From an uncultured beta proteobacterium (lineage in GTDB: Bacteria > Pseudomonadota > Gammaproteobacteria > Burkholderiales > Burkholderiaceae_C), in assembly GCA_963750665.1 (NCBI GenBank), contig CAVVRQ010000028.1:299101-363100 (forward strand): a stretch of 64,000 nucleotides of DNA, in the 5' to 3' direction. Positions 23,480 to 41,902 of this stretch are shown in pieces (within the stretch, counting starts at the first letter, position 1; each line of letters begins with the position of its first letter). Below the pieces are notes generated by a model, which had not been told where the DNA came from, ran no database searches, and saw nothing but the letters and a program-made list of their open reading frames with translations. Made by a program: the position numbers and the translations under genes.

Positions 23480-24709
23480 ATGAACTCACCCGCCGCTCTC
23501 TGGTTTCGTCTGGTACCCGCCTATGCGTTGGGCTACTTCTTGTCTTACGCGCTGCGCAGCGTCAACGCGGTGATTGCCCCCGAGCTGATGCGCGAACTCA
23601 ATATGAGTGCCGCCGGGCTTGGGCTGCTCACTTCAACTTATTTTCTGGCCTTTGGCCTGTTCCAGTTGCCGCTGGGTCTGCTGCTGGACCGCTTTGGCCC
23701 GCGCCGTGTCGAAGCGGCTTTATTGCTGGTGGCAGCCAGCGGCTGCACCCTGTTTGGTTTGGGGCAAAGCACCGCCAGCCTGGTGTTGGCGCGCGCGCTG
23801 ATCGGTTTGGGCGTATCAGCCTGCCTGATGGCCAGCTTCAAGGCCTTTAGCCAATGGTTCCGTTCCGAGCAACTGCCATCGCTCACCGCCACCATCATGG
23901 TCGCCGGGGGCTTGGGCGCGCTCTCAGCCAGTGTGCCGGTAGAGGCCGCACTGCCGCTGCTGGGCTGGCGCGGCCTGTTTTTTATGTGTGCCGGCTTGCT
24001 CGTGGCCTGTGCCGCCTACCTGATGACAGTGCCAGACCAACCAGTGCATGCGCAGCGCGAATCCATCGCCCAGCAGCTGCAGAACTTGCGCCAGATTTAT
24101 ACCGACCGCCGCTTCTGGCGTTTTGCCCCGCAGGGCTGTCTGGCCGTAGGCGGCTTCATGGCGATTCAAGGCCTGTGGGCGGTTCCGTGGCTGATGCAAG
24201 TTAACGGCCTGGACCGAAGCGCGGCCGCCAATGTGCTGCTGAGTTTGGCGATGGCCATGCTGGCCGGATTTTTGTTTGTGGCCACCTGCTCATTGTGGCT
24301 GGCGCGCCGTGGCGTATCACCGATGGCATTATTCAGCGCGGGCATGGGGCTGGGGCTGGTGGCTGGGCTGGCGATCATTCTGGACGCAGCACCACCAATG
24401 TGGCTGTGGCCACTGCTGGGCATCTCGTTCAGCCTGAGTAACATCGCCTATTCGCAGTTGACGGCGGCGTTTCCGGTGGCGCTGTCCGGGCGCGTCAACA
24501 CCGCCTTGAACCTGTTGGTGTTTGTAGGCGCTTTTGGCTTGCAGTGGGGCATTGGTGCGGCGCTTGACCTGGGCAACAACTTGGGCTTGACACGCACCGA
24601 TGCGTTCAGGCTAACTTTGACCGCGCTGCTGGCGGCGCAGGCGCTGGCCTATGTGTGGTTTTTGATACCGACCAAGGCGACGGGCCTTGCAGGCGCTGCC
24701 AACTGTTAG
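23480..24709 (+). CDS. MFS transporter
   Basis: 12 TM pattern; MFS motif A GLLLDRFGPRR. Confidence 0.9.
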   Translation: MNSPAALWFRLVPAYALGYFLSYALRSVNAVIAPELMRELNMSAAGLGLLTSTYFLAFGLFQLPLGLLLDRFGPRRVEAALLLVAASGCTLFGLGQSTASLVLARALIGLGVSACLMASFKAFSQWFRSEQLPSLTATIMVAGGLGALSASVPVEAALPLLGWRGLFFMCAGLLVACAAYLMTVPDQPVHAQRESIAQQLQNLRQIYTDRRFWRFAPQGCLAVGGFMAIQGLWAVPWLMQVNGLDRSAAANVLLSLAMAMLAGFLFVATCSLWLARRGVSPMALFSAGMGLGLVAGLAIILDAAPPMWLWPLLGISFSLSNIAYSQLTAAFPVALSGRVNTALNLLVFVGAFGLQWGIGAALDLGNNLGLTRTDAFRLTLTALLAAQALAYVWFLIPTKATGLAGAANC

Positions 24710-25542
24710 CCCTTGACCGCCCCAGCCGTCAGACCGGTAATGATCTGCCGCGCCGCGATAAAGGTGAAAATCAGCGGCGGTATCGCAATCAGGCTGCCCA
24801 AGGCCATGATCTTGCCCCAATCGACGCCGATATCGGTAATATAGAGCGAGGCGGCTACCGGTAGCGTGCGGGTGGCACGGTCGGTCAGCACCAAGGCCAG
24901 GATAAACTCGTTCCAGGCGATGCGGAAAGTAAAGATGGAAGCCGCCGCGATGCCGGGTTTGATCAGCGGCAGCACGACTTTGTAAAAGACCTTGATCGGG
25001 CCACAGCCGTCAATCGCAGCGGCTTCTTCCAGCTCTGGCGGCACTTGCAGGATAAAGCCGTAGAGCAGCCAGATGGCAAACGGCAGGTTGACCGCCACGT
25101 AAAGCAGGATAAGCCCCCAGAGCGAATTGATCAGCCCGGCCTGACTCCAGATCATGAACACCGGCACCGCCAACACAGCCAGCGGCACGGTGCGCAACAG
25201 CAAGGTGACATAGGCCAGCGACTTGCGACCGGGGAAGCGAAAGCGCGCCAGCCCATAGGCGGCCATGCAGGCCAGTACCAGCGTGATGACGGTCGAAACA
25301 ACCCCGACCATCAGGCTGTTGCCCAGGTAGCGCTGGAAGCTGCCCTCGCCCAGCACCTCGCGGTAGTTCTCCAGCGTTGGCGTAAACAGGAAACTGATTC
25401 CGGTATTGAAGATTTGCGTCTGCACTTTCAGGGACGTGGCAAACATCAAAATGATCGGCGCGACACAGGCTGCGGCCAGCACAATCAGCGCACCATAGTG
25501 GGCGGCGACCAGGGCTGGATGGCGCTTGATGCCGCTGCTCAT
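24706..25542 (-). CDS. CUT1 carbohydrate ABC permease (MalG-like)
   Basis: EAA loop ELEEAAAIDGC; AWNEF, TLPV. Confidence 0.92.
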   Translation of the reverse strand: MSSGIKRHPALVAAHYGALIVLAAACVAPIILMFATSLKVQTQIFNTGISFLFTPTLENYREVLGEGSFQRYLGNSLMVGVVSTVITLVLACMAAYGLARFRFPGRKSLAYVTLLLRTVPLAVLAVPVFMIWSQAGLINSLWGLILLYVAVNLPFAIWLLYGFILQVPPELEEAAAIDGCGPIKVFYKVVLPLIKPGIAAASIFTFRIAWNEFILALVLTDRATRTLPVAASLYITDIGVDWGKIMALGSLIAIPPLIFTFIAARQIITGLTAGAVKG

Positions 25543-26420
25543 GCGCGCTCCTCATCTTTGAGAGGGTTCGACAGGCGCAGGGCAAACCAGGACAGGCCGG
25601 CCACCACGATCAATAACAACACCGAAATGGCGGCGGCACTGCCCAGGCGCTGACTGACAAAAGCCGTCTTGTAGATGTGCAACGACAAAATCTCGGTGCT
25701 GTCACCGGGGCCGCCAAAAGTCAAAATGTAGATCACTTCGAGCACCCTGAAGGCATCGATCAGGCGCATCAACAAGGTAATGGCGATGACGTTCATCACC
25801 ATCGGCAGCTTGACCCGGAATGTGGTTTGCCACCAGTTGGCCCCGTCGACCCGAGCGGCCTCGAGCACCGCGCCATCGACGTTGGCCAGGGCGGCAATCA
25901 TCATGATGAAGACGAACGGCGTCCACTGCCAGATGTCGGCAATGATGATCGCGATGAAGGCTGTACTTTCTTGCGCCAGCCAACCAATGGGTGCCGCGCC
26001 AAAGACGGCCAGGATGGCGTTGAGCAAGCCGAATTGCGCGTCAAACAGGTAGCGCCAGGTCAGGCCGACAGCAATCGGCGCAATCATCATCGGCAGGATG
26101 AACAGCGTGCGAAAGAAGGCCATGCCGCGCACCTGGCCCTCCAGCGCCAGCGCCAGGGCGATGCCCAGCACCATCTCGGCGGCAACGCAGACAAAGGCAA
26201 ACAGCAAGGTGGTGGTCAGTGAACGCCACACGGCGGCGTCCTGAAAGGCCCGGCTAAAGGCCTCCACGCCGACCCACTTGGCCTCAGCCCAGGGCGTTCC
26301 CATGCTCCAGTCGTAAAACCCCAGTTGCAGGGCCGCCAGCAAAGGGTAGAGACACGCCACCGCCATGACGGCAGCGGCGGGGCCCAGATAGACCCAGGGA
26401 ACCCAGGCGGGCGGGCGCAT
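25539..26420 (-). CDS. CUT1 carbohydrate ABC permease (MalF-like)
   Basis: WQWTPF, EAARVDGA, DAFRVLE, TFGGPG. Confidence 0.92.
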   Translation of the reverse strand: MRPPAWVPWVYLGPAAAVMAVACLYPLLAALQLGFYDWSMGTPWAEAKWVGVEAFSRAFQDAAVWRSLTTTLLFAFVCVAAEMVLGIALALALEGQVRGMAFFRTLFILPMMIAPIAVGLTWRYLFDAQFGLLNAILAVFGAAPIGWLAQESTAFIAIIIADIWQWTPFVFIMMIAALANVDGAVLEAARVDGANWWQTTFRVKLPMVMNVIAITLLMRLIDAFRVLEVIYILTFGGPGDSTEILSLHIYKTAFVSQRLGSAAAISVLLLIVVAGLSWFALRLSNPLKDEERA

Positions 26421-26423
26421 GGC

Positions 26424-27770
26424 TCAGGCCTTTAGATAGCCGCCACGCTTCATGATGTCGGTCACCTTTGGCACCATGCCGTCCAGCGCTTCCCTGGCCT
26501 TCTTCTTGCCTGTCAGCGCCTCGGACACCGCAACACCCAGGGCCTGGATATTGATTTCGTCCCACTCGGCAATGATCGGGCGCCAATCGGGGTCAGAGTA
26601 CTGAAGCTGCTGACGCAAGGTGATGTACTCCGGGTACTGGCGCACCATCTCCTGGTCTGCCATGGTGGAGTTACGGCTGGGTACGCCACCGAGCTTGCAA
26701 ACGGCCTTGTCCTGCGCCTTGGAAGTGAGCCACTGCATTAACAGGAAAGCGGCATCGGCATTCTTGGCGTTCTTTGGAATCGCCAGGCCCAGCCCGCCCG
26801 ACTGCGACGAGTAGCGCGTGCCCTTGGGATGCAAGGCATAGCTCACTTGACCAGCAATCTTGGATTTCGCCGGGTCGTTGACCTGGCCAAAAATCAGCGA
26901 CGAATCGAGGTACATCGCGGCTTGCCCTTGCAGGAACGAAGTGATCATCTCGCCTTGCCCGTAGCCGGGAATGCCGACCGGGCCAGTGTCGGAAATCAGC
27001 TTCAGGGTGTCGAGGGCCTTGACGCCGATGTCGTTGTTGAAAATTGGTTTCCACTTGTCGTCAAACACCTTGCCACCGAGCGGATTCAAATGCAGCAACC
27101 AGGCATGCACGCATTGGTGACCGGCCTGGCCGCGCGAGGTCAGGGCGCCCAGGCCGGACTTTTCTTTCAGCACTGGCAGCAGTTTTTCCAGATCCGCATA
27201 GTTCTCCGGCGCCTTCAAATTGAGCTTGGCAAACACGTCACGCCGGTAGGCCAGCACTGACGTCTCGGCGCCGTAAGGCATACCGTACAGTTTGGCACCG
27301 GGGCCTGCCAGATAACCTTTGGGACCACCGACCAGGCCCATGTTTTCGACATAGCGCGGCACCACGTCCTTGAAATCGTAGTTTGGATCCGCCAGTGCGG
27401 CATTCTTGAAGAAGGGTTCGAGTTCGCGGATCAGGTTCTTCTTGACATATTCACCCTTCCACATCACAACATAACAGACCAGGTCATAGTCGCCGGAGGG
27501 CTTGGCCATCTCCAGCAACTGCTTGTCCTTCATGCGCGCCATGGCCAGCTTGTCAAGCTCGACCTTGATGCCGGTCTGCTTGGTGAACTCGGGCAGCAGC
27601 TTGACCATGGCATCGTAATGTGGGTGCGCCGGAATGCTCAACACCACGGTTTGCCCCTTGTACTTGGCAAAGCGGTCTTGCGCGTACCCAAACAGGGGTA
27701 GTCCCGCACCGAGCAGGCCCAGGGCACTGCCACCAGCGGTTTGAATCAGGGTTCTTCTCTTCATTTGCAT
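26424..27770 (-). CDS. CUT1 ABC substrate-binding protein
   Basis: Tat-like signal (KRRTLI); SBP_bac_1-type motifs (YGMPYGAETSVLAYRRD, FLQGQAAM). Confidence 0.88.
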   Translation of the reverse strand: MQMKRRTLIQTAGGSALGLLGAGLPLFGYAQDRFAKYKGQTVVLSIPAHPHYDAMVKLLPEFTKQTGIKVELDKLAMARMKDKQLLEMAKPSGDYDLVCYVVMWKGEYVKKNLIRELEPFFKNAALADPNYDFKDVVPRYVENMGLVGGPKGYLAGPGAKLYGMPYGAETSVLAYRRDVFAKLNLKAPENYADLEKLLPVLKEKSGLGALTSRGQAGHQCVHAWLLHLNPLGGKVFDDKWKPIFNNDIGVKALDTLKLISDTGPVGIPGYGQGEMITSFLQGQAAMYLDSSLIFGQVNDPAKSKIAGQVSYALHPKGTRYSSQSGGLGLAIPKNAKNADAAFLLMQWLTSKAQDKAVCKLGGVPSRNSTMADQEMVRQYPEYITLRQQLQYSDPDWRPIIAEWDEINIQALGVAVSEALTGKKKAREALDGMVPKVTDIMKRGGYLKA

Positions 27771-27790: not shown

Positions 27791-28879
27791 TCATTTGTCA
27801 AGGCGTTGACCACTGGCTGCATCAAACGCATGCAGGGCCGCCGGATCGAACGCCAAATCCACGGTCTGGTGCAACAAATCGGTTCGGTGGCCAGGCACCA
27901 CGGCAGTGATGCGCGCGCTCTGGCTGCCCACCAACTTGCCGACCAGAACCGATTCGGTGCCCAGATACTCGACCACATCGACTTGCAATTGCAGCAGACC
28001 CGGCGCTTGTGCCAAACGCAGCGCTTGCGGTCGCACGCCAAGCACCATTTGCTTGACGCTTTGCGGCGCATGGGGCACTGACACGCTGAAGCCCGCGCCT
28101 TCAAGCCGCGTTTGACCGCCTACGCATGTCACCGTGCCTGCCAGCAAATTCATGCTCGGCATGCCGATGAAGGCGGCGACAAACAGATTGGCCGGCTGGT
28201 TGAACACTTCGGACGGGCTACCCACCTGTTGAATCAGCCCCTTGTGAAAGATCACGATGCGTGAGGCCAGCGTCATGGCCTCGATCTGGTCATGCGTGAC
28301 ATACACCGTGGTCTTGCCCAGGCGCTCATGCAACATGGCCAACTCGGTGCGCATGTGGCCGCGCAGCTTGGCGTCCAGATTGGACAGCGGTTCATCAAAC
28401 AAGAATAGTGCCGGTTCGCGCACGATGCAGCGACCAATTGCCACCCGTTGGCGCTGCCCGCCAGAAAGTTCTTTGGGCTTGCGCTGTAACAGGTGCGCGA
28501 TGTTCAATATCTCGGCGGCAGCAGCAACGCGACGGTTAATTTCATCCCTGGACGTGCCCGCCAGATCCAGCGCAAAGCTCATGTTCTGCGCTACATCCAT
28601 GTGCGGGTACAGAGCGTAGTTCTGAAACACCATGGCAATGTCGCGCGCCTTGGGTGCCAGATTCGTCACATCCCGGCCTTTGATGAAAATGCGCCCTTCA
28701 CTCACCTCTTCGAGCCCGGCAATCATGCGCAGCACGGTTGATTTGCCGCAACCTGACTCGCCCAGCAACACCACAAATTCGCCTTGCCTGACGCTCAGGT
28801 TGAGCTCCTGCACGACGCGCACCTCGCCAAAGCGCTTGGCCACGTTCTGAAGTTGTAAACCGTCGAGCTCGGATGTCAT
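27791..28879 (-). CDS. CUT1 ABC ATP-binding protein (MalK/UgpC-like)
   Basis: GESGCGKST, AMVFQNYALYPHM, LSGGQRQR, DEPLSNLDAKLR; ATG at 28879. Confidence 0.95.
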   Translation of the reverse strand: MTSELDGLQLQNVAKRFGEVRVVQELNLSVRQGEFVVLLGESGCGKSTVLRMIAGLEEVSEGRIFIKGRDVTNLAPKARDIAMVFQNYALYPHMDVAQNMSFALDLAGTSRDEINRRVAAAAEILNIAHLLQRKPKELSGGQRQRVAIGRCIVREPALFLFDEPLSNLDAKLRGHMRTELAMLHERLGKTTVYVTHDQIEAMTLASRIVIFHKGLIQQVGSPSEVFNQPANLFVAAFIGMPSMNLLAGTVTCVGGQTRLEGAGFSVSVPHAPQSVKQMVLGVRPQALRLAQAPGLLQLQVDVVEYLGTESVLVGKLVGSQSARITAVVPGHRTDLLHQTVDLAFDPAALHAFDAASGQRLDK

Positions 28880-28969
28880 TGTGCAGCCCTGGATAATCAA
28901 ACTCTCGTCGGGAGAAATGATCTGAACCCGTCTCAGTCTGAAGCGCGCATATTGTCCGCTGCCACAAGT

Positions 28970-30034
28970 CTAAAGAAAAGAGGGGAAGGGCAGATCCGTG
29001 TCTTTGCTGAAGACATCATCAAAGCCGCGTGGAAAGTGGTATTCCATGTCATCCTTGTTGTCGGGGAAAACAAATTTGCCGCCGACCTGCCAGATGTAGG
29101 GTTTGAACTGGTAGCGCAGACGATCTTTCTTCATGTTCCAGAGCACGGTGATTTCCATCGGATCGGCCATGAAGTTGGACCAGATGTCATGGTGGAAAGG
29201 AATGACTACCTTGGCGTTGAGCGCCTCAGCCATGCGCAGGATGTCGGATGAGGTCATTTTGTCGGTGATGCCGCGCGGGTTTTCGCCGTAGGAGGCCAAC
29301 GCGACGTCGATGGTGTGCTGATTGCCATGCCGGGCGTAGCCGTTGGCGTAGTGCGAATCGCCGCTGTGATAGAGGTTGCCGCCAGGTGTCTTGAGCAGGT
29401 AGTTGACTGCCACTTGGTCCATGTCAATGGGCATCTTGTCCCTGGCGATCTGATCTTTTGGCAGGGTGATCATCATGGTGCGGTCAAAGGATTCAAGCAC
29501 CACAATTTCCACGTCGCCGACCTTGACGCTGTCACCGGGCTTGACCTGAATGATGCGATCATCCGGAACGCCCCAACCCTTCCACACATCAGCCGAAGAT
29601 TTGGGCCCGATGAAAGGCACTTTTGGGTCGCAGTTTTTCAGCACGGCGGCGGCCACATTGATATCGATGTGGTCGTTGTGCGTGTGGGTTGACAGGACGG
29701 CGTCAATCTGCCGGATCGCAAACGGATCAATGACAAACGGCGAGACGCGCAGGTTTGGCTGCAGTTTGACGCAACCGCTCATGCGTGCCATCTGATGCTG
29801 CGGATCCATCAGCGGGTTCTTCATGGAGCGCTTACCGGTGCCACACCACAGGTCGATGCACAGATTGGTGCTGCCTTCGGTCTTGAGCCAGATGCCGGTA
29901 CAGGCCAACCACCACATGGCAAAACTGCCGGGTGCGACCACCTCACGCTCGATTTCTTCATTGAGCCAGGTGCCCCATTGCGGAAAGGTGCTCAGAACCC
30001 ACGATTCCTTGGTGATTTCGTTTACTTTTGCCAT
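28970..30034 (-). CDS. ulaG: L-ascorbate-6-phosphate lactonase UlaG (metallo-beta-lactamase fold)
   Basis: End-to-end resemblance to enterobacterial UlaG as recalled: [69 protein letters not shown]. Confidence 0.93.
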
Positions 30035-30118
30035 GTCTTGCTCCGATCAACTCTGAAGTCCGTACAAAATTGCACCGGCCAGCGCCGAAATACCAGCGCC
30101 GCCAGCAAAGCCTCTCTA

Positions 30119-30197
30119 AACGATCAAATAGATACAAATTAGTGATCTGACCGCGATGGTATGGTAGCTTTCAAATCATCAATGAATCATTTTGATC
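30119..30197. promoter_or_regulatory. Putative DeoR operator half-sites upstream of ulaG
   Basis: AACGATCAAATAG at 30119 and CATTTTGAT (reverse complement of ATCAAAATG) at 30188-30196. Confidence 0.5.
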
Positions 30198-30283
30198 TTT
30201 TTATGCTGATTTGTTGTCCGGGATCAAACTCGGCGTAAAACCGGGCTGACAGGGACTCCGGGTTTACCCGCAGGCCAACCCCG

Positions 30284-31321
30284 TCAACTGACAAAATAAA
30301 GCGCGACTTCTGCCTTTTCCCGGTTTGCGGCAACGATGATGTCCCGGTTTTCCTCATGCCGGACGTAGATATTGCTGGGGCCAACGCCTTCCTCAATCAG
30401 TTCAGCCCTCAGTTCAAGCGGTCGCGTGCGGCTGGCTCGGACGTAGAAGAGTTGCTGTTTGCCACGGCGGCAGCCGCCAATGAAAACCGGCAATCCGGCC
30501 AGCGTTGTTCCGAGCACGACGTGGTAAAAGTCCGAAACCTCGGGGTGTTCAAAGACTTTTTCGAATTCACCATTGATTTTCTTGTACACCCTGAAATAGT
30601 TGCCATGAAACGGCTCGATGGTGGCAAATTCGAGTTCACCATCGCCATCAATATCGACCGCCGAGATGTCGCTGATGGGCCAATCCATGAATTGTTCCAT
30701 GCGCCACGCGCCGCCCGGTTGCTGCGGCGGCGTCACTTCGAACGCGCCTTGCTCACACGTCACCAGACTGGACATGGCACCCTGGCGCGTGAGTCGGCTG
30801 TAGCCGTGATTCTTGCTTAATCCGTCTTTAAGCACGGTGAGTTCCAGCGGGCCCCGGCCAGTGAACTCGCCGACCCAAATCTTGCCTGGATCCGACCAAT
30901 CGTCTTTTGATTGCTTGCTGGTGGCCAGCGTGCAGCCGATGAAATAGTTCCGGTTCCCCACTGTCAATAGATCAAAACGGTGAATGTAGGGCAGGTGCAG
31001 CACGTCGCTGACGGCATAGCTGTGGTTGACCAGTGGGCGCACATGAACGATTTTTGCTTCTTCCCACTGGAACATTCTGAAAAATTCTTGCACCGCCAGG
31101 AATTCGCCATTGGTGCCCGCAATCGGAACCATCGACATGGTTCCGCCGGGTCCCTCCCAGACGGTGTGCTGCTCAGTGAAGTCGGTCCCGCTCCAGGCCA
31201 GGCAGCGGCCCTCGCCTTCGGTGGCCACCAAAATCCGTGGCTCCTTGTCAACCAGCAGGCAGGTGGCTGAGTAGCAACGGTTGAGCTCAGTCAAAAAGCG
31301 CTTTTCCAATTTCATGGGCAT
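30284..31321 (-). CDS. Hypothetical protein, probable beta-propeller with an FG-GAP-like motif
   Basis: 345 aa, beta-strand rich, no signal peptide; DIDGDGELE motif, VWEGPGG, PYIHRFD, NHGY, EPFHG; GC3-biased codon use. Confidence 0.7.
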   Translation of the reverse strand: MPMKLEKRFLTELNRCYSATCLLVDKEPRILVATEGEGRCLAWSGTDFTEQHTVWEGPGGTMSMVPIAGTNGEFLAVQEFFRMFQWEEAKIVHVRPLVNHSYAVSDVLHLPYIHRFDLLTVGNRNYFIGCTLATSKQSKDDWSDPGKIWVGEFTGRGPLELTVLKDGLSKNHGYSRLTRQGAMSSLVTCEQGAFEVTPPQQPGGAWRMEQFMDWPISDISAVDIDGDGELEFATIEPFHGNYFRVYKKINGEFEKVFEHPEVSDFYHVVLGTTLAGLPVFIGGCRRGKQQLFYVRASRTRPLELRAELIEEGVGPSNIYVRHEENRDIIVAANREKAEVALYFVS

Positions 31322-31329
31322 CCATCCTG

Positions 31330-31471
31330 AACGATCAAAATGATCGTTAATGATTCAAATAGGCCTGATTTTATTGCATCAAATCCCGGCCATGGCGTAG
31401 TTCTGATCAAAATGCAGAGATTGGAAGGCGCTGACGGTGAGGATTCCCCCTACAATGAAAGCATCAAAATG
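31330..31471. promoter_or_regulatory. Putative DeoR operators in the divergent promoter between the propeller gene and the kinase
   Basis: Perfect palindrome AACGATCA-AAA-TGATCGTT at 31330-31348; ATCAAAATG at 31334, 31406 and 31463. Confidence 0.6.
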
Positions 31472-31486
31472 TTCGCATTGTGGCGC

Positions 31487-32995
31487 ATGAAGGCAATCAT
31501 TACTGTCGATATAGGCACGACCAGCACGCGCGCCATTCTGTACGACGACGCGGGCCAGGTCCGCTATATGGATCAGCGCGACAACGGCCCGACATCTTTT
31601 GAGGATGGCCGGGTGGAGCAAGACCCGCTGACGTGGCACAGCGTATTGCGCTCAGTTCTAAAAAATTGCGCCGAAGTGGCGACCAGCAAGGGCTTCACGC
31701 CGACCTGCATCGCCGTGACAGCACAGCGTTCCTCGCTGATAGCGGTGGATCGGCTTGGCGCTGCCCTGCACCCGGCCATCATGTGGCAGGATCTTCGCAG
31801 CGCAGCGCTGGCCCAAGCCATGCGCGCTGACGACGCGCTGGTCTATGGCAAGACCGGCCTCAAGATTTCGCCCGTTTTCTCGGCCATCAAGATGACCTGG
31901 CTGCGCCGCACGCGCCCCGAGCTCTGGGCCAAAACGCACAAACTGCTCGGCGTGCAGGACTGGGTGCTCTACTTGCTGACCGGGCGCTTCGTGACCGATC
32001 ACACCTTTGCCAGTCGCACCAATTTGCTCGATCTGCAAAGCCGGGCCTGGGACCCCGATTTGCTGGCCTTGTTCCAGGTCGAGCCCGCGCTGCTTTGCGA
32101 GCTGCTGGCACCCGGATCGGTGGTTGGCGGCCTGACGCCGGAGCTGGGCCGCCTGACTGGCTTGACCGCCGGACTGCCGGTGGTTTCGGCGGGCGGCGAT
32201 CAGCAGTGTGCCGCGCTCGGCCTTGGACTGTTCTCAGGTGAGCGGGCGGTCGCCAACACCGGCACCGGTTCCTACCTCATTGGCCACAGCCAGCGGCCGG
32301 TGTTCGACGCGCAAATGCGCATGTCGTGCAACGTGTCTGCCGTGCCCGACGCGTATATCGTCGAGGCTGCCGTGCTGACCTCTGGGTCGGTTTATCACTG
32401 GTTTACCCAATCCCTTTTGGGCGCCAAAGACGCGACGCAGGATCCTTTTGAGACCCTCAACGCGGAAGCTGCGCGCGTGCCACCCGGTGCCAACGGTCTG
32501 TTGATGCTGCCGCATTTCAAAGGTTGCGGCTCGCCTTATTGGGACCCGCAGGCCAAGGGCGTTTTCTTCAACCTGAGCTTGACTACCACGCGCGGCGACA
32601 TGGCGCGCGCCATTCTTGAGAGCATTGCCCTTGAATTGACGGCCAACCTGCAGTTGGTGGAACAGCTCTGCGGGCCGGTCAAGGCGGTCAGCGTGGGCGG
32701 TGGCATGACGAAGCTGGACCTGTTCAATCAAATTCAAAGCGATGTGTTTGAGCGGCCGGTGCAGCGTTTCCCGAGTGCCGAGGCCACTTCCCTGGGCGCC
32801 TGGATGGCAGGCGCTGTGGCCGTGGGGCTTGCCACCAGCTACGCGACGGCGTTTGAGCGTGCGACCGGCCTGGGCTCCAGCGTCACCTTTCGGCCAAATG
32901 CGGCCAACCGGGACGTGTATGCACGCCAGGGTCGTCAGTCGCGCGCGCTCTATCAGGCTTTGTCGGGTACCGCCTTTCGCACGTCGATGCAGTAA
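31487..32995 (+). CDS. FGGY-family carbohydrate kinase (xylulokinase/LyxK-like)
   Basis: DIGTTSTRA, AIMWQDLR, GGDQQCA, NTGTGS, GGGM, ATSLGA; start reassigned to ATG 31487. Confidence 0.92.
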   Translation: MKAIITVDIGTTSTRAILYDDAGQVRYMDQRDNGPTSFEDGRVEQDPLTWHSVLRSVLKNCAEVATSKGFTPTCIAVTAQRSSLIAVDRLGAALHPAIMWQDLRSAALAQAMRADDALVYGKTGLKISPVFSAIKMTWLRRTRPELWAKTHKLLGVQDWVLYLLTGRFVTDHTFASRTNLLDLQSRAWDPDLLALFQVEPALLCELLAPGSVVGGLTPELGRLTGLTAGLPVVSAGGDQQCAALGLGLFSGERAVANTGTGSYLIGHSQRPVFDAQMRMSCNVSAVPDAYIVEAAVLTSGSVYHWFTQSLLGAKDATQDPFETLNAEAARVPPGANGLLMLPHFKGCGSPYWDPQAKGVFFNLSLTTTRGDMARAILESIALELTANLQLVEQLCGPVKAVSVGGGMTKLDLFNQIQSDVFERPVQRFPSAEATSLGAWMAGAVAVGLATSYATAFERATGLGSSVTFRPNAANRDVYARQGRQSRALYQALSGTAFRTSMQ

Positions 32996-33010
32996 TCTGG
33001 GCACCAAGCC

Positions 33011-33811
33011 ATGACAGAGTCCACCAAACCCCCAGCGCTGAAGCTATCGAACTACCGGCACAAGAAGATTCTGGAGATGCTGTCTTTGCGCCAGTCGGTT
33101 TCGGCTGACGAATTGGCCACTGAATTTGGCGTGTCCAAGATTACCGTGCGGCGCGATCTCGATGCGCTGGCCGGGCACAAGTTGCTGGAGCGTACCCGGG
33201 GTGGGGCGATTTCGATTGCAGGCCTGCGCCTGGAGGCCTTCTTTGCCGAAAAGGACCACACCGCCAAGCGTGAAAAAAGCCTGATTGGCCGCTATGTTGC
33301 CACCTTGATCGCGGAAAACGCGACCGTCTTTGTCAATGGTGGCTCGACCACGCTGGAAGTCGTTCGCCATTTGCGCGGCAAAAAGGCCCGGGTCGTCACC
33401 AACAACACGGCCTGCCTGGCGCTCGACCTCGATCCCCAGCAGGAGCTGATCCTGCTCGGCGGCGACTACCGCCTGCAATCCAAGTCGCTGGTTGGCGACC
33501 TGTGTCTGGCCGGGCTGCACGGCATTTTTTCCAGCGTGACGGTGCTCGGCATCAATGGCGTGAGCCTCAAGAAGGGCTGCACCAGCGCGGTCAGTCAGGA
33601 AACCAGCGTCAACAAGGCCATGATCGAGAATTCCAGCGGCAAAGTGATCATCGTGGCAGATCACACCAAATTGAATTGCGTATCGAGTTTTTTGACTTGT
33701 CCGCTCAGCCGCATCGACCTGATCGTTACCGACTGGCTGGCGCCGCTGCCCTTTTGCGATGAAATTCAGGCCGGTGGCGTGCAAGTGATCCGCGTACCCG
33801 ACGCGGCTTGA
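33011..33811 (+). CDS. DeoR/GlpR-family regulator (UlaR-like)
   Basis: VSKITVRRDLDAL HTH, RTRGGA, NGGSTT, VVTNN, IVADHTK. Confidence 0.93.
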   Translation: MTESTKPPALKLSNYRHKKILEMLSLRQSVSADELATEFGVSKITVRRDLDALAGHKLLERTRGGAISIAGLRLEAFFAEKDHTAKREKSLIGRYVATLIAENATVFVNGGSTTLEVVRHLRGKKARVVTNNTACLALDLDPQQELILLGGDYRLQSKSLVGDLCLAGLHGIFSSVTVLGINGVSLKKGCTSAVSQETSVNKAMIENSSGKVIIVADHTKLNCVSSFLTCPLSRIDLIVTDWLAPLPFCDEIQAGGVQVIRVPDAA

Positions 33812-33831
33812 TCAGCGCCAACGCCGGCGGG

Positions 33832-34527
33832 TCAACCCTGCCCGTAGTAGGCACCGGGGCCATGCTTGCGAAAAAAGTGTTTCTCCAGCAGGTGCTGCGG
33901 CATGGCCGACAGATTCGGGGCCAGTTGCAGGCTCAGCAGCGCCATGCGCGCCGTCAGTTCCAGCACGGCGGCATTGTGCACCGCCTCGTGGGCATCAGCG
34001 CCCCAGGTGAACGGGCCATGATTGGCCACCAACACCGCTGGCATTTGCACCGGATCGATAGCCCCGTGGCGAAAACGCTCGATGATGGCCAGGCCGGTTT
34101 CGGCTTCGTATTGGCCTGCAGTTTGCTGCGCCGTCAACACCCCCGTGCAAGGAATTTCGCCAAAGAAGTAGTCGGCGTGGGTGGTGCCCAGTGCCGGGAT
34201 GCCACGGCAAGCCTGCGCCCAGACTGTGGCCCAGCTTGAATGGGTGTGCACAATGCCACCGAGCGAGGCAAAGTGCCGGTAGAGTACCAGGTGCGTCGGC
34301 AGATCGGACGACGGTTTGAGATTGCCCTCAAGCACCCGGCCATCGGCATCGACGACCACCATGTCGGCCTGTTTCATGCTTTCATAGGGCACGCCACTGG
34401 GCTTGATGACAATCGCGCCGCTGGCAGCATCGCGCGCGCTAACGTTGCCCCAGGTAAAGTCCACCAGGCCGAGCCGCGGCAGTTCCAGATTGGCGGCGAG
34501 CACTTGGCTCTTCAGGTCTTCCAGCAT
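33832..34527 (-). CDS. araD: L-ribulose-5-phosphate 4-epimerase (AraD/UlaF/SgbE)
   Basis: LVDFTWGNVS, IKPSGV, KPSSDLPTH, HTHS, GTTHADYF, NHGPFTWG, HGPGAYYGQ. Confidence 0.95.
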   Translation of the reverse strand: MLEDLKSQVLAANLELPRLGLVDFTWGNVSARDAASGAIVIKPSGVPYESMKQADMVVVDADGRVLEGNLKPSSDLPTHLVLYRHFASLGGIVHTHSSWATVWAQACRGIPALGTTHADYFFGEIPCTGVLTAQQTAGQYEAETGLAIIERFRHGAIDPVQMPAVLVANHGPFTWGADAHEAVHNAAVLELTARMALLSLQLAPNLSAMPQHLLEKHFFRKHGPGAYYGQG

Positions 34528-35381
34528 CACGCATAACCTCCTTGTGTCAGACGTTCACCCACCCATTGCCGCGCTTGCGCAATCTCCGCCAGCGGGTCGG
34601 AGGCTTTCTCGGTCCACATCTCGACCAGAAAAGGTCCGGCGTAGCCCAGGGCATGTAGCGTCTTGAAGCAGTGAACAAAATCGACTGTTCCCTGGCCGAA
34701 AGGCACGTCGCGAAACGCGCCCGCAAAGCCCGGGCCGACCGGCTTGGATTCCTTGACATGCACACCGACGATATGGTGAATACCAGCATGGAGCTCGCGC
34801 TCGATGTCGTTACCCCAGGCCGTGAGATTGCCCAGGTCGGGATAAACCTGAAACCAGGGCGACGGCAGCTGCTGCTTGAGCAGCAGGTATTTGGAAATCG
34901 AATTCAGGAATGGGGTGTCCATGATTTCCAGCGCCAGCATGACCTGGTGCTGCGCGGCAATTTCCAGCGCGCGTGCCATGCCCTCGACATAACGCTCGCG
35001 CGAAGCGCGGCTGCCCGGTTCGTAATAAACGTCGTAACCGGCCAGTTGAATTACCCGGATGCCGGTGTCGCAAGCAAAGCCGATGGCTTTTGCCATGAAT
35101 TCGTCGGCCTGGGCCCGAACCGCCGCATCGGCGCTACCAAACGGAATTCTTCTGTGCCCCGAGAGGCACATCGATGGCACCGGAACACCGTGCTCGCGCG
35201 AGGCCCGAAAGAATGTCAGTCGTTCTTGCACAGACCAGTCCAGCCGCGCCATGCGCTGCGGCGTTTCATCCACCGAGAGTTCCAGAAAGTCATAGCCCGC
35301 CTTGCGGGCGGCATCAAATCGCTCGGCCCAACTCAGGTCGCTCGGCAACGCCTTTTCGTAGATACCAATCGGGTTCTTCAT
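34527..35381 (-). CDS. ulaE: L-ribulose-5-phosphate 3-epimerase (UlaE/SgbU)
   Basis: IGIYEKAL, ELSVDET, SMCLSGHRR, IQLAGYDVYY, EIMDT, YPDLGN, EMW. Confidence 0.95.
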   Translation of the reverse strand: MKNPIGIYEKALPSDLSWAERFDAARKAGYDFLELSVDETPQRMARLDWSVQERLTFFRASREHGVPVPSMCLSGHRRIPFGSADAAVRAQADEFMAKAIGFACDTGIRVIQLAGYDVYYEPGSRASRERYVEGMARALEIAAQHQVMLALEIMDTPFLNSISKYLLLKQQLPSPWFQVYPDLGNLTAWGNDIERELHAGIHHIVGVHVKESKPVGPGFAGAFRDVPFGQGTVDFVHCFKTLHALGYAGPFLVEMWTEKASDPLAEIAQARQWVGERLTQGGYA

Positions 35382-35456: not shown

Positions 35457-36146
35457 ATGTCCGGAATTGAAGCTGTCGTTTTCGACATGGATGGTGTTCT
35501 GATTGACTCGGAGGTTTTGTGGCGCCAGGTGCGCCTGGAATTCGCCGCCGACCATGGCCTGAGGTGGGGCGAGCAGGAGCAAGCCGCCACCATGGGCTGC
35601 AGCACCGCCATGTGGTCAAGCCTGATGGTGGAGCGCCTGCAACTGCACACCCGGCTGGGCATGGATGCGCCCGCTTTGGCGAGCGAAATCAAGCGCCGCC
35701 TGATTGCCAAGTACCAGCTGCATTTGCCACTGCGCGCGGGTGCCATCGACGCGGTGCACTGTGCCGCCAGCCACTACAAAGTCGCGCTGGCCACCGGCTC
35801 GCCGACCGAACTGGCCGACTACGTACTGCGTGCCACCGGTCTGGACCAGGTTTTTCTGGCCACAATGTACGGCGATGACGTGGCACATGGCAAGCCGGCG
35901 CCCGACATCTATCTGCAGGTTTTGACAAAGATCGGCGTCAAGCCCGAGCACGCCGTTGGTGTCGAAGACTCGGGCAACGGCATTCGCTCCCTCAAAGCGG
36001 CCGGCATGCGCATCATTGCCGCGCCAGGCCCGGAGTTTCCCCTGGCCCCCGATGTGCTGGCCCTGGCAGATGCGCAGATTGACTCGATGACCGAATTTAA
36101 CGTCGCACTGGTGGAACAAGTTGGTTCCCGCTCTGCAGGATTTTGA
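35457..36146 (+). CDS. HAD-superfamily sugar phosphatase (HxpB/YniC-like)
   Basis: Motif I FDMDGVLIDSE, GKPAPDIY, VEDSGNG; start reassigned to ATG 35457. Confidence 0.9.
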   Translation: MSGIEAVVFDMDGVLIDSEVLWRQVRLEFAADHGLRWGEQEQAATMGCSTAMWSSLMVERLQLHTRLGMDAPALASEIKRRLIAKYQLHLPLRAGAIDAVHCAASHYKVALATGSPTELADYVLRATGLDQVFLATMYGDDVAHGKPAPDIYLQVLTKIGVKPEHAVGVEDSGNGIRSLKAAGMRIIAAPGPEFPLAPDVLALADAQIDSMTEFNVALVEQVGSRSAGF

Positions 36147-36277: not shown

Positions 36278-37201
36278 TCAGCGATGCAAAAAGCTGTGAG
36301 GATTCTGCGGATCTAAGTAGCGCTGCTTAAAGTACTGACGCACGGTTTTCATTGCAGGACTCATCACTGCGTCTGCGCGCCACGCCAAGCCTACGTTCAT
36401 ACTCGGAATATTCTCAACAGGCTTGATCGTTTCGATTCGTTTACCCTCCAACGACCATGGGCGATAAACCATGTCAGACAAAATTGCCACACCCAGATCG
36501 TTGGCCACCAGGCTGCGCACCGCTTCGATTGACTTGGTGTTCAAGGTGACGTTAGGCTCACAGCCATGCAGGTGCCAATAGCGAAGTGCCGAATCGGCGG
36601 CCTCATCGACCGTCAGCATAATGAATGGCTCTTGTGCGATTTCAGCAAAGCTAACCTGTCGTTTCGCTAAGAAGTGATGTTGCGGCGAAACCCATAACCG
36701 ACGTTGCGAGCTAAACAAGGTCTCTGTCTGAAGGGCAGGGTTACGGACGTTGGATGTCAGCAGCATTGCCATGTCGTAGTGTTGCGCGAGTAAACCCGAT
36801 TCAATCGTGTCGCGGTCAAGCTCCAGCATTCGGATGTGAAGTGCTGGATAAAGCAGCGACAAGCGCTGCAAATGATCCGGTAAAAAATAACCCATCACAG
36901 TGTAGGTGGCAGCCAGTGTCAGTTCCCCAGTAACTGGCGTAATTTGTTGCGGCATGTTTCGCGCATCGTCTACAGCCGCCAAAATTGCGTAGGCGCGGGT
37001 CAAAAAATGTCTGCCGTTGTCGGTCAGCTCCATGCCGTGGGATTGGCGGCTAAAAAGCCTGTACCCCAAACCGTCCTCCAACTCTCGGATCGAAATAGTC
37101 ACTGCTGACTGCGAAACCGACAACTCAACTGCAGCACGGGAGATTTGCCCCAGTTCAGCCGTTGCCGCAAAGTACTTAATTTGTCGCAGTGAAAAACGCA
37201 T
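36278..37201 (-). CDS. LysR-family regulator of the lam/pxp-like operon
   Basis: LRQIKYFAATAELGQISRAA..LSVSQSAVT..IRELE HTH; divergent from pxpA. Confidence 0.93.
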   Translation of the reverse strand: MRFSLRQIKYFAATAELGQISRAAVELSVSQSAVTISIRELEDGLGYRLFSRQSHGMELTDNGRHFLTRAYAILAAVDDARNMPQQITPVTGELTLAATYTVMGYFLPDHLQRLSLLYPALHIRMLELDRDTIESGLLAQHYDMAMLLTSNVRNPALQTETLFSSQRRLWVSPQHHFLAKRQVSFAEIAQEPFIMLTVDEAADSALRYWHLHGCEPNVTLNTKSIEAVRSLVANDLGVAILSDMVYRPWSLEGKRIETIKPVENIPSMNVGLAWRADAVMSPAMKTVRQYFKQRYLDPQNPHSFLHR

Positions 37202-37366
37202 TTCAAGACATCCCTCACGCTGAGGGGGATGAAAAAAATCAAGATATTTAGAAAACTAATACTAGCACCTTAAAAAATAGAATTATCTTTCCCTGCGCCA
37301 AACTTTTAATCTTCGGCAACTAGACGGTTTCTTAAGTGGCATCGCAACCAAGACAGCTGAACAAAA

Positions 37367-38155
37367 ATGGGCAAAGCAATGAAAAATGTGGTGGATTTGA
37401 ATTCTGACCTGGGGGAGGGATTTGGCCCATGGAGCATCGGAGATGGTGCGGACGAAGCTATCATGAGTCAGATCAGCTCCGCCAATATTGCAACTGGCTT
37501 TCACGCCGGCGATCCGAACATCATGCAGCGAATGGTGTCCTTGGCCAAGCATCATAACGTGGGCATTGGTGCGCACCCAGGCTTTCGCGACTTGGTTGGA
37601 TTTGGTCGGCGCGACATGAAAGCCTCCAGCCGTGAATTGCTGAACGACATCATTTATCAAACTGGCGCATTACGCGAATTTGCGCACTGGCAAGGCCTGA
37701 GTTTGCAGCACCTCAAATTGCATGGCGCACTCTACATGCGCGCAGCGATAGATGAAGAGTTGTCAATCGCTTTGATCAAGGCCCTGCAAGAGATTGAACC
37801 CAACTTGTATCTCTATTGCATGGAAGCATCTGTTACTTACAAGGTGGCCAAACAAATGGGGCATCCGGTAGTGCGAGAGTTTTATGGTGATCGCAGCTAC
37901 GACAAGACAGGGTCAATTGTATTTACACGCCAGGTTGGACAACTTGACCCGGCCATCGTCGCCGCCAGGGCCCTGCGCGCCTGTACCCACGGCGTAGTTC
38001 AAACGGTTGAAGGCGCAGACATCGCAATAGAATTTGATTCAATCTGCATCCACAGTGACACACCGGGTGCGCTGGCTCTGATCAAGGCCACAAGAACCGC
38101 GTTGACCAGCAACGGCATACAAATTGCCCCGTTGTCAGAAGTCATGCCGCGTTGA
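37367..38155 (+). CDS. pxpA: LamB/YcsF-family protein (PxpA-like)
   Basis: [51 protein letters not shown]. Confidence 0.92.
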
Positions 38156-38232
38156 ATCAGCCGGCACCCGACGGCCTATTGACCAGGTTTTGATTTGTTT
38201 GAACTGCACAGTACAACTTAGGAGCGCACAGC

Positions 38233-38466
38233 ATGGCTGAAATTCTTTCCCCTCTCCCCGGCACGTTCTATAGGCGACCCGCCCCGGATGCACCCAACTA
38301 CAAACAAGTCGGAGACCCTGTTGCGATCGACGAGGTGATCGGCTTGGTTGAAGTGATGAAGATGTTCAACGAAGTTCGCGCAGAAGTCAGCGGCAAGGTG
38401 GTGCGCTACACGATTGACAACGAAGCCCCGGTTGAAGCCGGACAAGTCTTGATGATCCTTGAATAA
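38233..38466 (+). CDS. Stand-alone biotin carboxyl carrier domain
   Basis: SPLPGTFYRRP, biotinylation motif EVMKMF; 77 aa. Confidence 0.92.
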   Translation: MAEILSPLPGTFYRRPAPDAPNYKQVGDPVAIDEVIGLVEVMKMFNEVRAEVSGKVVRYTIDNEAPVEAGQVLMILE

Positions 38467-38512
38467 CTGATCAAAATTGGGCCTCCCCACACCTCATAGC
38501 AAAGTCCATTTG

Positions 38513-39919
38513 ATGACAACCACGCACAAAGTACTGATAGCCAATCGCGGTGAAATTGCCGTTCGCATTGCTCGAGCCGCGCAGGAACTTGGACTGCAGA
38601 CCGTTGCGGTGGTAAGTGACGCCGACACCACCAGTCTGGTCGCACAGATGGCCGATCAGGTGGTCAATATTGGCCCCGCGCATCCAGCCAAAAGTTATTT
38701 GAATGCCGATGCCATTTTGCAGGCGGCGCGGTCAACCGGCGCCACTATGGTGCATCCTGGGTATGGTTTCCTGTCCGAGAACGCTGCATTTGCTCGCAAG
38801 GTCACTCAAGCCGGACTCATTTTCGTCGGGCCCAGCGCAGAGACCATCGAGTGCATGGGTAACAAATCCGTGGCACGCGAGACTGCTCAAAGAGCTGGGG
38901 TACCCACAGTTCCTGGAAGCAAAGGCACAGTCAAGGACGTGGAAACGGCGGCCAGGGTCGCCTCCGAGATTGGTTATCCCGTGATGATTAAGGCGTCAGC
39001 CGGAGGCGGTGGCCGTGGTATTCGTGTAGCACACAGTGAGCCTGAACTTCGTCATCACTTGCCGCTTGCGCAGAGTGAGGCACGTGCGGCATTTGGTGAC
39101 GACGCCGTCTATTTGGAACGCTTCATCGCCACGGCCCGGCATATCGAGGTTCAAATTCTGGGTGATGGGAAACGGGTTGTCCATTGTTATGAGCGAGAGT
39201 GCTCGTTGCAGAGAAGGCGGCAAAAGATCGTCGAGGAAGCGCCGTCACCGGCTTTATCGCAGATTAAACGCGATGCCCTGTGTGAATCAGCTGTTCGCCT
39301 GGCGAGCGCTGTCGGCTATAGCGGCGCTGGGACACTGGAGTTTTTATACGACGACGACAGTGGTGAGTTCTTCTTTATTGAAATGAATACCCGCATCCAG
39401 GTTGAACACCCGGTCAGCGAACTGGTGACTGGAGTTGATCTGGTGCGCGAAATGCTGCGCATTGGGATGGGAGAACCGCTAAGGTTTACGCAGGAACAGA
39501 TCGTCCTCAAAGGAGCCGCGATCGAATGCCGCTTGAACGCCGAAGATCCAGAGCGCAACTTCATGCCCAGCCCGGGAAGGTTGAGCTCCCTGCGCTGGCC
39601 AGATGGACCGGGTGTGCGGGTCGATACGCATGTGTACGCCGGCTACACCATCCCGCCTTTTTACGATTCCCTGCTGGCAAAATTGGCCGTATGGGATGAG
39701 GACAGGCCTGCCGCCTTGCGACGCATGCAACGAGCCTTGGCCGAAACCAGTATTGAGGGTGTCCACAGCACGGTTGCACTGCATCAGCAGTTGTTGGCTG
39801 ATCCTTCTGTCAAGAAAGGGCACTTTCACACTGGCTACCTTGAGCAATGGATGGCTGAACGAGCAGCCGCCAAAGCTCAAGCCCTGGCATTCCAGCCATC
39901 AGTCGAACAAGCTGTCTAG
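38513..39919 (+). CDS. Biotin carboxylase
   Basis: ANRGEIA, HPGYGFLSEN, GGGGRG, ECSLQRR.QK, EMNTRIQVEHPV, PFYDSLLAK; ATG 38513. Confidence 0.95.
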   Translation: MTTTHKVLIANRGEIAVRIARAAQELGLQTVAVVSDADTTSLVAQMADQVVNIGPAHPAKSYLNADAILQAARSTGATMVHPGYGFLSENAAFARKVTQAGLIFVGPSAETIECMGNKSVARETAQRAGVPTVPGSKGTVKDVETAARVASEIGYPVMIKASAGGGGRGIRVAHSEPELRHHLPLAQSEARAAFGDDAVYLERFIATARHIEVQILGDGKRVVHCYERECSLQRRRQKIVEEAPSPALSQIKRDALCESAVRLASAVGYSGAGTLEFLYDDDSGEFFFIEMNTRIQVEHPVSELVTGVDLVREMLRIGMGEPLRFTQEQIVLKGAAIECRLNAEDPERNFMPSPGRLSSLRWPDGPGVRVDTHVYAGYTIPPFYDSLLAKLAVWDEDRPAALRRMQRALAETSIEGVHSTVALHQQLLADPSVKKGHFHTGYLEQWMAERAAAKAQALAFQPSVEQAV

Positions 39920-39949
39920 CTGCCTTCGAGCCTTTCTATAGGAAAATTC

Positions 39950-40834
39950 ATGTCACTCCCACCAGCACGATATTCATTTGGCGGCGACGAACATATTTTC
40001 GTGGAACTCAACCACGACATGTCGCTGGAAGCTTTCTTTAAAGGCATGTCAATAACCAATGCCATCGCGCAGCGAAGGATTGCCGGCGTGACTGAAATTT
40101 GTCCGGCCAATGCTTCCTATCAAATCCGTTTTGACCCCGATCTGATGGCACCAGACAAGTTAATGGAGATTTTGAAATCGATTGAAATCGAGTTGGGCGA
40201 CGGTGCACTGGAACTCAACACACGCATCATCGAGATTCCCGTCTTCTACAACGACCCCTGGACTAACGAAACGCAACGGCGTTTTCGTGAGCGGCATCAG
40301 GACCCCACTTCAACTGACCTCGAATATGGCGCACGCGTCAATGGCTATGCGAATGTAGACGCGTTCATTGCTGCGCATGCTGCGTCGCCCTGGTTTGTGT
40401 CGATGGTTGGCTTTGTTGCGGGTCTGCCGTTCATGTTTCAGATGGTTGAGCGTGCCAAGCAGATTCAGGTTCCAAAATATCTCAGGCCACGCACGGATAC
40501 ACCCAAACTCACGATTGGGCACGGCGGCTGCTTCGGCTGCATCTATTCTGTGCGCGGTGCGGGTGGCTATCAAATGTTTGGCATCACGCCGGCGCCCATT
40601 TTTGATCCGCAACAAAGCCTGCCGTATGTCAAAGACTTCATGGTGTTTTTCCGCCCTGGAGACATTGTCAAATTCAAGCCAATAAACCGGTCCGAGTATG
40701 ACGCTGCACTGGCGAAAGTACAGGATGGAAGCTTCGACTTGCGCATCCGCGAGGTGAAGTTTTCACTGCAGGACTTTATTAAAGATCCGAGCGCTTACAA
40801 CCAACAATTGACGGAGACTTTGTATGGCAATTAA
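39950..40834 (+). CDS. Allophanate hydrolase subunit 1/carboxyltransferase domain (PxpB-like, long urea-carboxylase type)
   Basis: YSFGGDEHIFVE, IEIPVFY, GFVAGLPF, PRTDTP, GAGGYQMFGITP, FRPGDIVKF. Confidence 0.85.
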   Translation: MSLPPARYSFGGDEHIFVELNHDMSLEAFFKGMSITNAIAQRRIAGVTEICPANASYQIRFDPDLMAPDKLMEILKSIEIELGDGALELNTRIIEIPVFYNDPWTNETQRRFRERHQDPTSTDLEYGARVNGYANVDAFIAAHAASPWFVSMVGFVAGLPFMFQMVERAKQIQVPKYLRPRTDTPKLTIGHGGCFGCIYSVRGAGGYQMFGITPAPIFDPQQSLPYVKDFMVFFRPGDIVKFKPINRSEYDAALAKVQDGSFDLRIREVKFSLQDFIKDPSAYNQQLTETLYGN

Positions 40835-41801: not shown

Positions 41802-41848
41802 GTTTCCTAGATATTTCGGCGAGTAATGACCTTACTTGTCTTCCCCAC

Positions 41849-41872
41849 CTTCGCACTGGTGCGAAGTTTTTT
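41849..41872 (+). terminator. Intrinsic terminator between the enzyme genes and the transporter genes
   Basis: CTTCGCAC-TG-GTGCGAAG followed by TTTTTT. Confidence 0.6.
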
Positions 41873-41902
41873 CAACCTTGACTTTTACTTATTGGAGATT
41901 TC

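Follow-up and report, generated by a model that had tools for sequence, protein, structure and literature searches.

A predicted seven-bladed beta-propeller decarboxylase in place of UlaD in a phosphotransferase-free L-ascorbate locus

A 64,000-nucleotide stretch of the genome of an uncultured beta proteobacterium (the window; contig CAVVRQ010000028.1, C28:299101-363100) carries a ula-type locus for L-ascorbate breakdown. The lactonase UlaG and the epimerases UlaE and UlaF are encoded, and the enzyme between them, the decarboxylase of 3-keto-L-gulonate-6-phosphate (KGPDC; UlaD or SgbH), is missing. In this study, we propose that the gap is filled by a non-orthologous decarboxylase, a 343-residue beta-propeller protein encoded beside ulaG, and we put the probability of this predicted activity at about 77%. 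The locus as a whole is best explained as a complete L-ascorbate pathway that is free of the phosphotransferase system (PTS) and has two gene replacements. An ABC system would import ascorbate, an FGGY kinase would phosphorylate it at C6 in place of UlaABC, and UlaG would open the lactone to 3-keto-L-gulonate-6-phosphate. The propeller would then decarboxylate this compound to L-xylulose-5-phosphate in place of UlaD/SgbH, and UlaE and UlaF would lead on to D-xylulose-5-phosphate.

The UlaD gap and the distribution of the propeller

The original prediction had read UlaG, UlaE and UlaF from the window and had pointed to a missing UlaD. All three enzymes scored over their NCBIfam cut-offs, and the locus was indeed free of any gene of the OMP-decarboxylase fold. 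The genome (3.71 Mb, 30 contigs, 98.95% complete) has its closest ulaG relatives among Betaproteobacteria. It was searched with profiles for UlaD, SgbH and HPS, and none was present. The best match was 19 bits for the UlaD model NF009832 (cut-off 250) and 27 bits for the HPS model TIGR03128 (cut-off 200). PF00215 was over its cut-off in a single protein of the genome, a PyrF-type open reading frame of 274 residues, and weakly matched a ribulose-phosphate epimerase, both named from sequence. The best E value of tblastn with E. coli UlaD and SgbH was 0.67. Three hidden Markov models and tblastn thus found no ulaD elsewhere in the genome, and no orthologue of ulaD or sgbH with the operator motif of the locus was found there. 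Neither UlaA, UlaB nor YiaK gave a tblastn match in the genome, and no ascorbate PTS was found. The contig that carries the locus is 1.02 Mb long and has it in its middle, so no assembly break cuts the locus. The absence of UlaD is common to 84 of the 147 ulaG genomes examined, this one included, and is therefore not a chance loss. These results confirm that the pathway hole is real.

We mapped the genes of 80 ulaG loci and searched 79 whole genomes, which had been selected by similarity. The family of the 343-residue protein occurred in UlaD-less loci only and in none with ulaD or sgbH. The propeller was present without a canonical KGPDC in 65 of the 79 genomes, a canonical UlaD/SgbH with the E112/R139/T169 signature was present without the propeller in 12, and two had neither. 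No other real gene family was common to the UlaD-less loci, and minimal PTS-type operons of Clostridium (ulaG-C-A-B-propeller-F-E) left no other candidate. The HAD phosphatase of the locus and other shared genes were rejected as the missing enzyme, as they were not kept across UlaD-less loci.

Since this initial set had been chosen by similarity, two further tests were run. Among 399 Clostridia, evenly drawn and unselected, the eight new ulaG genomes were all without UlaD and all carried the propeller in the ulaG locus. Only one genome of this set had a propeller without ulaG; there the gene (L146:9420-10451) lies outside any sugar locus, and residue 33 is N instead of E. The third set consisted of 59 further ulaG genomes of Fusobacteriota and Spirochaetota, for which the prediction was made beforehand. 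All nine UlaD-less genomes of this set carried the propeller, each in the ulaG locus. Five genomes matched both the propeller and the UlaD models; one of them (G925) has a propeller-type ula operon, and its UlaD-like gene, 34% identical, belongs to another locus.

With the window genome included, 84 of the 147 ulaG genomes were of the propeller type, 61 were of the UlaD type and two had neither gene, in a sample that is taxonomically uneven. A few metagenome-assembled genomes with short contigs had the propeller and ulaG on different contigs. At the level of loci, 81 had the propeller, 47 had UlaD and none had both. Because related genomes are not independent, counting was moved to a UlaG tree of 112 rows, from which 27 near-identical rows had been dropped. 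The propeller and UlaD states each changed nine times on this tree. In six independent pairs on well-supported branches, UlaD never went along with the propeller, and the two states were opposite in 5.3 pairs on average.

Weaker matches to the UlaD model in propeller genomes were also checked. Those checked had the HPS signature (D112/A169) or a degenerate one, or were divergent genes in a separate phosphotriesterase-like/transketolase locus (L099, L157), and were for this reason not counted as KGPDC; one (L100) was too distant for alignment. L099 differs from E. coli UlaD by K64R, D67R, R139A and T169A. Such loci, in one Rubrivivax genome and one Fusobacteriota genome (L124:8287-19886 and L157:3360-7556), hold the divergent UlaD-like gene with a phosphotriesterase-like gene, a split transketolase and ulaE or ulaF.

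The locus, its regulation and its kinase

The features of the locus are given below in window coordinates.

24706-25542, minus strand: sugar ABC permease, MalG-type (NCBIfam CUT1 permease matches below cut-offs; conserved beside ulaG in related loci)
25539-26420, minus strand: sugar ABC permease, MalF/UgpA-type (NCBIfam matches and gene map of related loci)
26424-27770, minus strand: ABC substrate-binding protein (PF01547, 132 bits)
27791-28900, minus strand: ABC ATPase, UgpC/MalK-type (NF008653, 463 bits, cut-off 432)
28970-30034, minus strand: ulaG, L-ascorbate-6-phosphate lactonase (NF008688, 647 bits, cut-off 306; 73% identical to E. coli UlaG)
30185-30197, minus strand: operator-like site (GATC-N5-GATY) upstream of ulaG, exact copy
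30284-31315, minus strand: gene of the 343-residue beta-propeller, adjoining ulaG, unannotated (no NCBIfam family; no Pfam family over cut-off)
31333-31345, plus strand: second operator-like site, between the propeller gene and the divergent kinase gene, exact copy
31487-32995, plus strand: FGGY sugar kinase of the ulaG-linked clade (PF00370 and PF02782; below all named equivalog cut-offs)
33011-33811, plus strand: DeoR-family regulator, functional counterpart of UlaR, 26% identical (PF00455 and PF08220)
33832-34530, minus strand: ulaF/sgbE, L-ribulose-5-phosphate 4-epimerase (NF006047, 354 bits, cut-off 257)
34527-35381, minus strand: ulaE/sgbU, L-xylulose-5-phosphate 3-epimerase (TIGR00542, 390 bits, cut-off 272)
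35457-36146, plus strand: HAD phosphatase, divergent from ulaE (PF00702; close relatives in only some related loci)

The ABC genes, ulaG and the propeller gene are thus followed by the divergent kinase and regulator genes, which converge on ulaF and ulaE. The ATPase likely starts at the ATG at 28879. UlaF is 60-61% identical to E. coli UlaF and SgbE, and UlaE is 56-58% identical to UlaE and SgbU. The HAD phosphatase is possibly an accessory enzyme that would relieve a build-up of sugar phosphates. Beyond it, the stretch 36278-45618 has a lower G+C content (about 0.52-0.55 versus about 0.60) and holds LysR, pxpA/pxpB/pxpC-like genes, a biotin carboxylase and a sugar-type ABC system; it is apparently a separate locus.

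The operator-like site GATCAAAATGATY occurs in perfect form at just two places in the genome, at 30185 upstream of ulaG and at 31333 between the propeller and kinase genes. Since the pattern was read from the window locus, this count is not an independent test; its conservation elsewhere is. Of 41 related loci, 34 had sites within one mismatch; most of these sites stood upstream of ulaG (32) or of the propeller gene (18). The propeller is probably co-regulated with ulaG, judging from these sites. Nine one-mismatch sites lie elsewhere in the genome and none flanks a decarboxylase-like gene, and no regulon members elsewhere were found by means of the site. A scan for sigma-70 promoters and terminators gave chance-level matches only.

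Relatives of the binding protein adjoin ulaG, both in Betaproteobacteria (69-96% identity) and in two spirochaetes (46-48%). It has no characterised close relative, and we infer that its ligand is L-ascorbate. The best family score of the FGGY kinase was for xylulokinase (284 bits, cut-off 380), and no close relative was found among solved structures. It was rejected as a LyxK orthologue, being only 23% identical to E. coli LyxK; in a tree, LyxK and the ulaG-linked kinases formed separate supported clades. Across the ulaG loci, the PTS was present in 85 and this kinase type in 41, and the two never occurred together. A spirochaete locus (L075) combines the same ABC type and kinase type with sgbH, which would put phosphorylation ahead of decarboxylation. 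A PTS-linked UlaG (L010), 87% identical to that of the window, nests among kinase-linked UlaGs, which suggests that the UlaG substrate is unchanged and is ascorbate-6-phosphate. Taken together, these observations point to the kinase as an L-ascorbate 6-kinase that would replace phosphorylation by the PTS; the alternative is a 3-keto-L-gulonate kinase. The only other FGGY kinase of the genome (L206:1433-11629, G000:C23) belongs to a glycerol-type locus with a dehydrogenase, ABC and DeoR genes, outside the ula system.

Predicted step and fold of the propeller

The propeller also takes the sgbH slot in yiaL-lyxK loci that have neither ulaG nor ulaABC (L119, L123 and L152-L155). In two of them (L119 and L123, from Propionispira and a relative) it lies between lyxK and sgbE/sgbU. 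These loci tie the propeller to decarboxylation, because this is the sole step common to the ula and yia-sgb routes that they lack. A role as a helper of the UlaG lactonase or as a transport component was rejected on the same loci, where the propeller is present without ulaG. The operon in L119:5116-12116 and L123:4817-11903 reads yiaL, MFS, a 309-residue protein of unassigned function, lyxK, propeller, sgbE and sgbU, without yiaK. The 309-residue protein had no NCBIfam match at E 1e-15; through it, 3-keto-L-gulonate may be provided by a different route.

No NCBIfam family covers the propeller, and Pfam shows only a faint FG-GAP repeat. An AlphaFold2 model (predicted local distance difference test, pLDDT, 89; predicted template-modelling score, pTM, 0.89) was all-beta, with 28 strands forming seven blades. 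The best solved fold match was the propeller of aldos-2-ulose dehydratase (AUDH; 4a7k), with Z 34.1 and a root-mean-square deviation of 2.7 A over 334 residues at about 10% identity; the next-best match had Z 29.2. The nearest named atlas clusters of the model were PF22301, the AUDH family (TM 0.87-0.89). The window protein itself had no PF22301 match, and 18 of 123 relatives matched weakly (best E 2.7e-5). It also had no PF00215 match, and is not a (beta/alpha)8 barrel with D-x-K-x-x-D and E112/R139/T169. AUDH-type propellers of bacteria were found in none of 301 Pseudomonadota genomes, and no relatives of the propeller were found on plasmids. The family comprises 506 clusters of 50% identity at E<=1e-10.

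An alignment of 123 diverse members (mean column identity 31%) showed Y15, G58, H112, G144, H170, H237, G238 and H265 to be invariant and E33, R113, D139, W140, N169, R283 and N331 to be nearly so. In the model, the conserved residues appear to lie at A-strand starts and B-C loops, on one face of the propeller. The family profile aligned H112 with AUDH H155 and H237 with AUDH H295 in a weak match (E=0.77), and H170 and H265 fit the AUDH histidine site by spacing and blade position only. In AUDH, H155 is reportedly catalytic, and H215, H295 and H337 are said to bind zinc. The fold fits the predicted role without proving it, since a histidine-held metal that stabilises an enediolate would suit a beta-keto-acid decarboxylase. 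A divalent metal on H170, H237 and H265 at the propeller mouth would bind the C3 carbonyl and stabilise the enediolate left on departure of CO2. The enediolate may be protonated by H112, or by Y15 or E33 through water, and the phosphate or carboxylate may be held by R13 and R283. We know of no decarboxylase of the 3-keto-aldonate kind with a propeller fold.

Extra propeller copies, 63-73% identical, were found in Propionivibrio and Accumulibacter genomes outside ula loci. Their neighbours are TRAP transporters, the D-erythronate dehydrogenase DenD (over its cut-off in L113), a tartronate-semialdehyde-reductase-type enzyme and DhaK/DhaL. GntR/LysR and a tartrate-dehydrogenase-like gene were also seen in these loci (L111, L112, L113, L114, L115, L116, L118 and L120), which are possibly undescribed tetronate or sugar-acid routes through dihydroxyacetone. 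An oxo-tetronate that loses CO2 yields dihydroxyacetone, the substrate of DhaKL (PMC13753588), and for this reason the paralogue contexts also point to decarboxylation, here of unphosphorylated acids. Residue 13 is R or K in 38 of 38 betaproteobacterial ula copies, that of the window included, and in 45 of 53 other ula/yia copies; it is S or N in seven of eight paralogues in TRAP loci. This hints at a phosphate contact and is a lead only, because the eight paralogues are related.

Competing explanations and relation to known systems

The original prediction had offered three ways to account for the hole: a non-orthologous decarboxylase, spontaneous decarboxylation followed by phosphorylation of L-xylulose, or a different entry substrate. 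Genome context gave strong support to a non-orthologous decarboxylase, with the propeller as the candidate, and spoke against spontaneous decarboxylation followed by an L-xylulose kinase; a different substrate was not needed. Several observations weigh against decarboxylation by the propeller. Four Fusobacteriota genomes carry both the propeller and ulaD, though in different loci. Their ulaD was confirmed in the ula operon in two (L169 and L201) and lies at most about 4 kb from ulaG in two; the propeller is distant, with yiaL, a 2-hydroxyacid dehydrogenase-like gene and a LyxK-like kinase and without sgbH. Of the two ulaG genomes with neither gene, one is metagenome-assembled and one has an HPS-like gene in the locus. 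The test on independent pairs agrees with the exclusion, but it was small and is formally borderline (median sign-test p=0.06, range 0.03-0.125). As AUDH is a dehydratase, what the modelled fold suggests is the chemistry of enolisation rather than decarboxylation itself, and the identity is about 10%. In addition, 3-keto aldonates can decarboxylate non-enzymatically (PMC12994016, PMC13753588), and elsewhere in the genome an OtnC-like gene (222 bits, cut-off 250) adjoins an otnK-like gene. As to the HPS-like gene, a Clostridium ulaG locus without UlaD and propeller (L063:9343-11062; L109) holds an HPS-signature gene in the UlaD slot, and this HPS-family enzyme possibly acts as KGPDC. The OtnK-like (named from sequence) and OtnC-like genes of the window genome (L211:8516-10488, G000:C28:160515-162487) lie in a separate TRAP locus.

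We consider it unlikely that CO2 is lost spontaneously or by a side activity of UlaF, UlaE or OtnC, with the propeller as an accessory enzyme such as a tautomerase, a C2-epimerase or a side-product repair enzyme. The spontaneous loss of CO2 from 3-keto sugar acids (PMC12994016, PMC13753588) speaks for it, as do the in vitro action of OtnC on C5/C6 3-oxo-acid phosphates (PMC12994016), the fact that UlaF and OtnC are both of the class II aldolase fold, and the dehydratase as closest solved fold. The OtnC-like gene is a possible promiscuous backup decarboxylase. However, an accessory enzyme would be expected in UlaD loci too, and the propeller was in none of 47. An accessory role is disfavoured because it does not account for a propeller that is retained solely in the absence of UlaD. 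The window UlaF is of the ordinary AraD type (354 bits versus 61 for the OtnC model NF043034, cut-off 250), and five other propeller-type genomes tested were without OtnC (best 123 bits).

The steps may also run in another order, with UlaG opening free ascorbate, the propeller decarboxylating free 3-keto-L-gulonate to L-xylulose and the FGGY enzyme acting as an L-xylulokinase. The paralogues in TRAP loci with DenD or DhaKL, whose substrate is probably unphosphorylated, and the xylulokinase score of the kinase fit this order, which is nonetheless quite improbable. The same propeller and UlaG clades occur with the PTS and without such a kinase (L010; 38 such UlaD-less loci), so the substrate there must be phosphorylated. 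The exclusion of the kinase by the PTS, and its one pairing with SgbH (L075), place it upstream of decarboxylation, and its clade is not that of LyxK. The contrast at residue 13 also stands against this order. It is very improbable that the locus serves a different substrate (an ascorbate analogue, a glycoside or another sugar lactone) without any UlaD-type step, for which one may cite the binding protein and the warning that specificity may shift in UlaG homologues of less than 80% identity (PMC3219644). Against this, UlaG, UlaE and UlaF are each over their family cut-offs, the window UlaG shares a clade with the PTS-linked L010 enzyme, and two spirochaetes (L075 and L170) combine this ABC type with ulaG, ulaD/sgbH, ulaE and ulaF. 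A C6 lactone that feeds pentulose-phosphate epimerases would still need a C6-to-C5 step.

The window locus resembles the E. coli ula regulon (ulaG, ulaABCDEF, ulaR) and yiaKLMNO-lyxK-sgbHUE in UlaG (73%), UlaE (56%), UlaF (60%) and a DeoR-type regulator, and its intermediates and end product would be the same. Unlike the E. coli systems, it has no PTS, UlaD/SgbH or YiaK, and it has instead an ABC importer, a non-LyxK FGGY kinase (23%), the propeller and its own operator-like site of the form GATC-N5-GATC. KGPDC works through a metal-stabilised enediolate. The propeller takes the same pathway slot as UlaD/SgbH, often the same operon slot, and is proposed to catalyse the same reaction via such an enediolate. 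It differs as a 343-residue all-beta seven-bladed propeller from a (beta/alpha)8 barrel of about 216 residues, and its proposed ligands are histidines in place of the Asp/Lys/Glu set. It shares the seven-bladed VCBS/FG-GAP-type fold with the N-terminal propeller of AUDH (4a7k; PF22301, VCBS superfamily), where the HR and FHG motifs align weakly with H155 and H295. Unlike AUDH, it has no cupin or lectin domains, stands in a bacterial ascorbate context and is proposed to decarboxylate, not to dehydrate. OtnC is an existing second fold that decarboxylates 3-keto-aldonate phosphates; it differs from the propeller fold and is not encoded in the window locus.

The pathway is known, and no description of the proposed enzyme family turned up in the literature searched. 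That search, with most subscription journals outside its coverage, returned nothing on ulaD or ulaG with a beta-propeller, on a non-orthologous 3-keto-L-gulonate decarboxylase or on an 'ascorbate kinase'. A duplicated hypothetical gene after ulaF has been reported in Catonella morbi (PMC3219644). More than half of the sampled ulaG genomes, many Clostridia included, are without UlaD, and metabolic reconstructions would therefore mark vitamin C breakdown in them as broken. Should the propeller be the decarboxylase, the hole is closed, and a function is gained by a family that has no name and spans several hundred clusters of 50% identity. The OMP-decarboxylase barrel and the class II aldolase fold would then be joined by a third fold for the beta-keto-acid decarboxylation of sugar acids. 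With the PTS-free form, freshwater and soil Betaproteobacteria would be added to the users of ascorbate, and an ascorbate kinase is predicted. We give even odds to a broader proposal, in which the family consists of undescribed histidine/metal-dependent 3-keto-aldonate decarboxylases, phosphate-dependent and phosphate-independent, that would act in the catabolism of ascorbate, diketogulonate and tetronate across four phyla or more, with the FGGY partner as an undescribed L-ascorbate 6-kinase of the PTS-free ula pathway.

Two further arrangements of the propeller were seen. In L148:8001-13219 and L138, ulaG and the propeller occur with a TctABC-type tripartite tricarboxylate transporter, the PTS and the FGGY kinase being unseen in the stretch fetched. 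In a PTS-type ula operon (L087:10001-11875; P0129), a Cof-type HAD phosphatase is naturally fused to the propeller.

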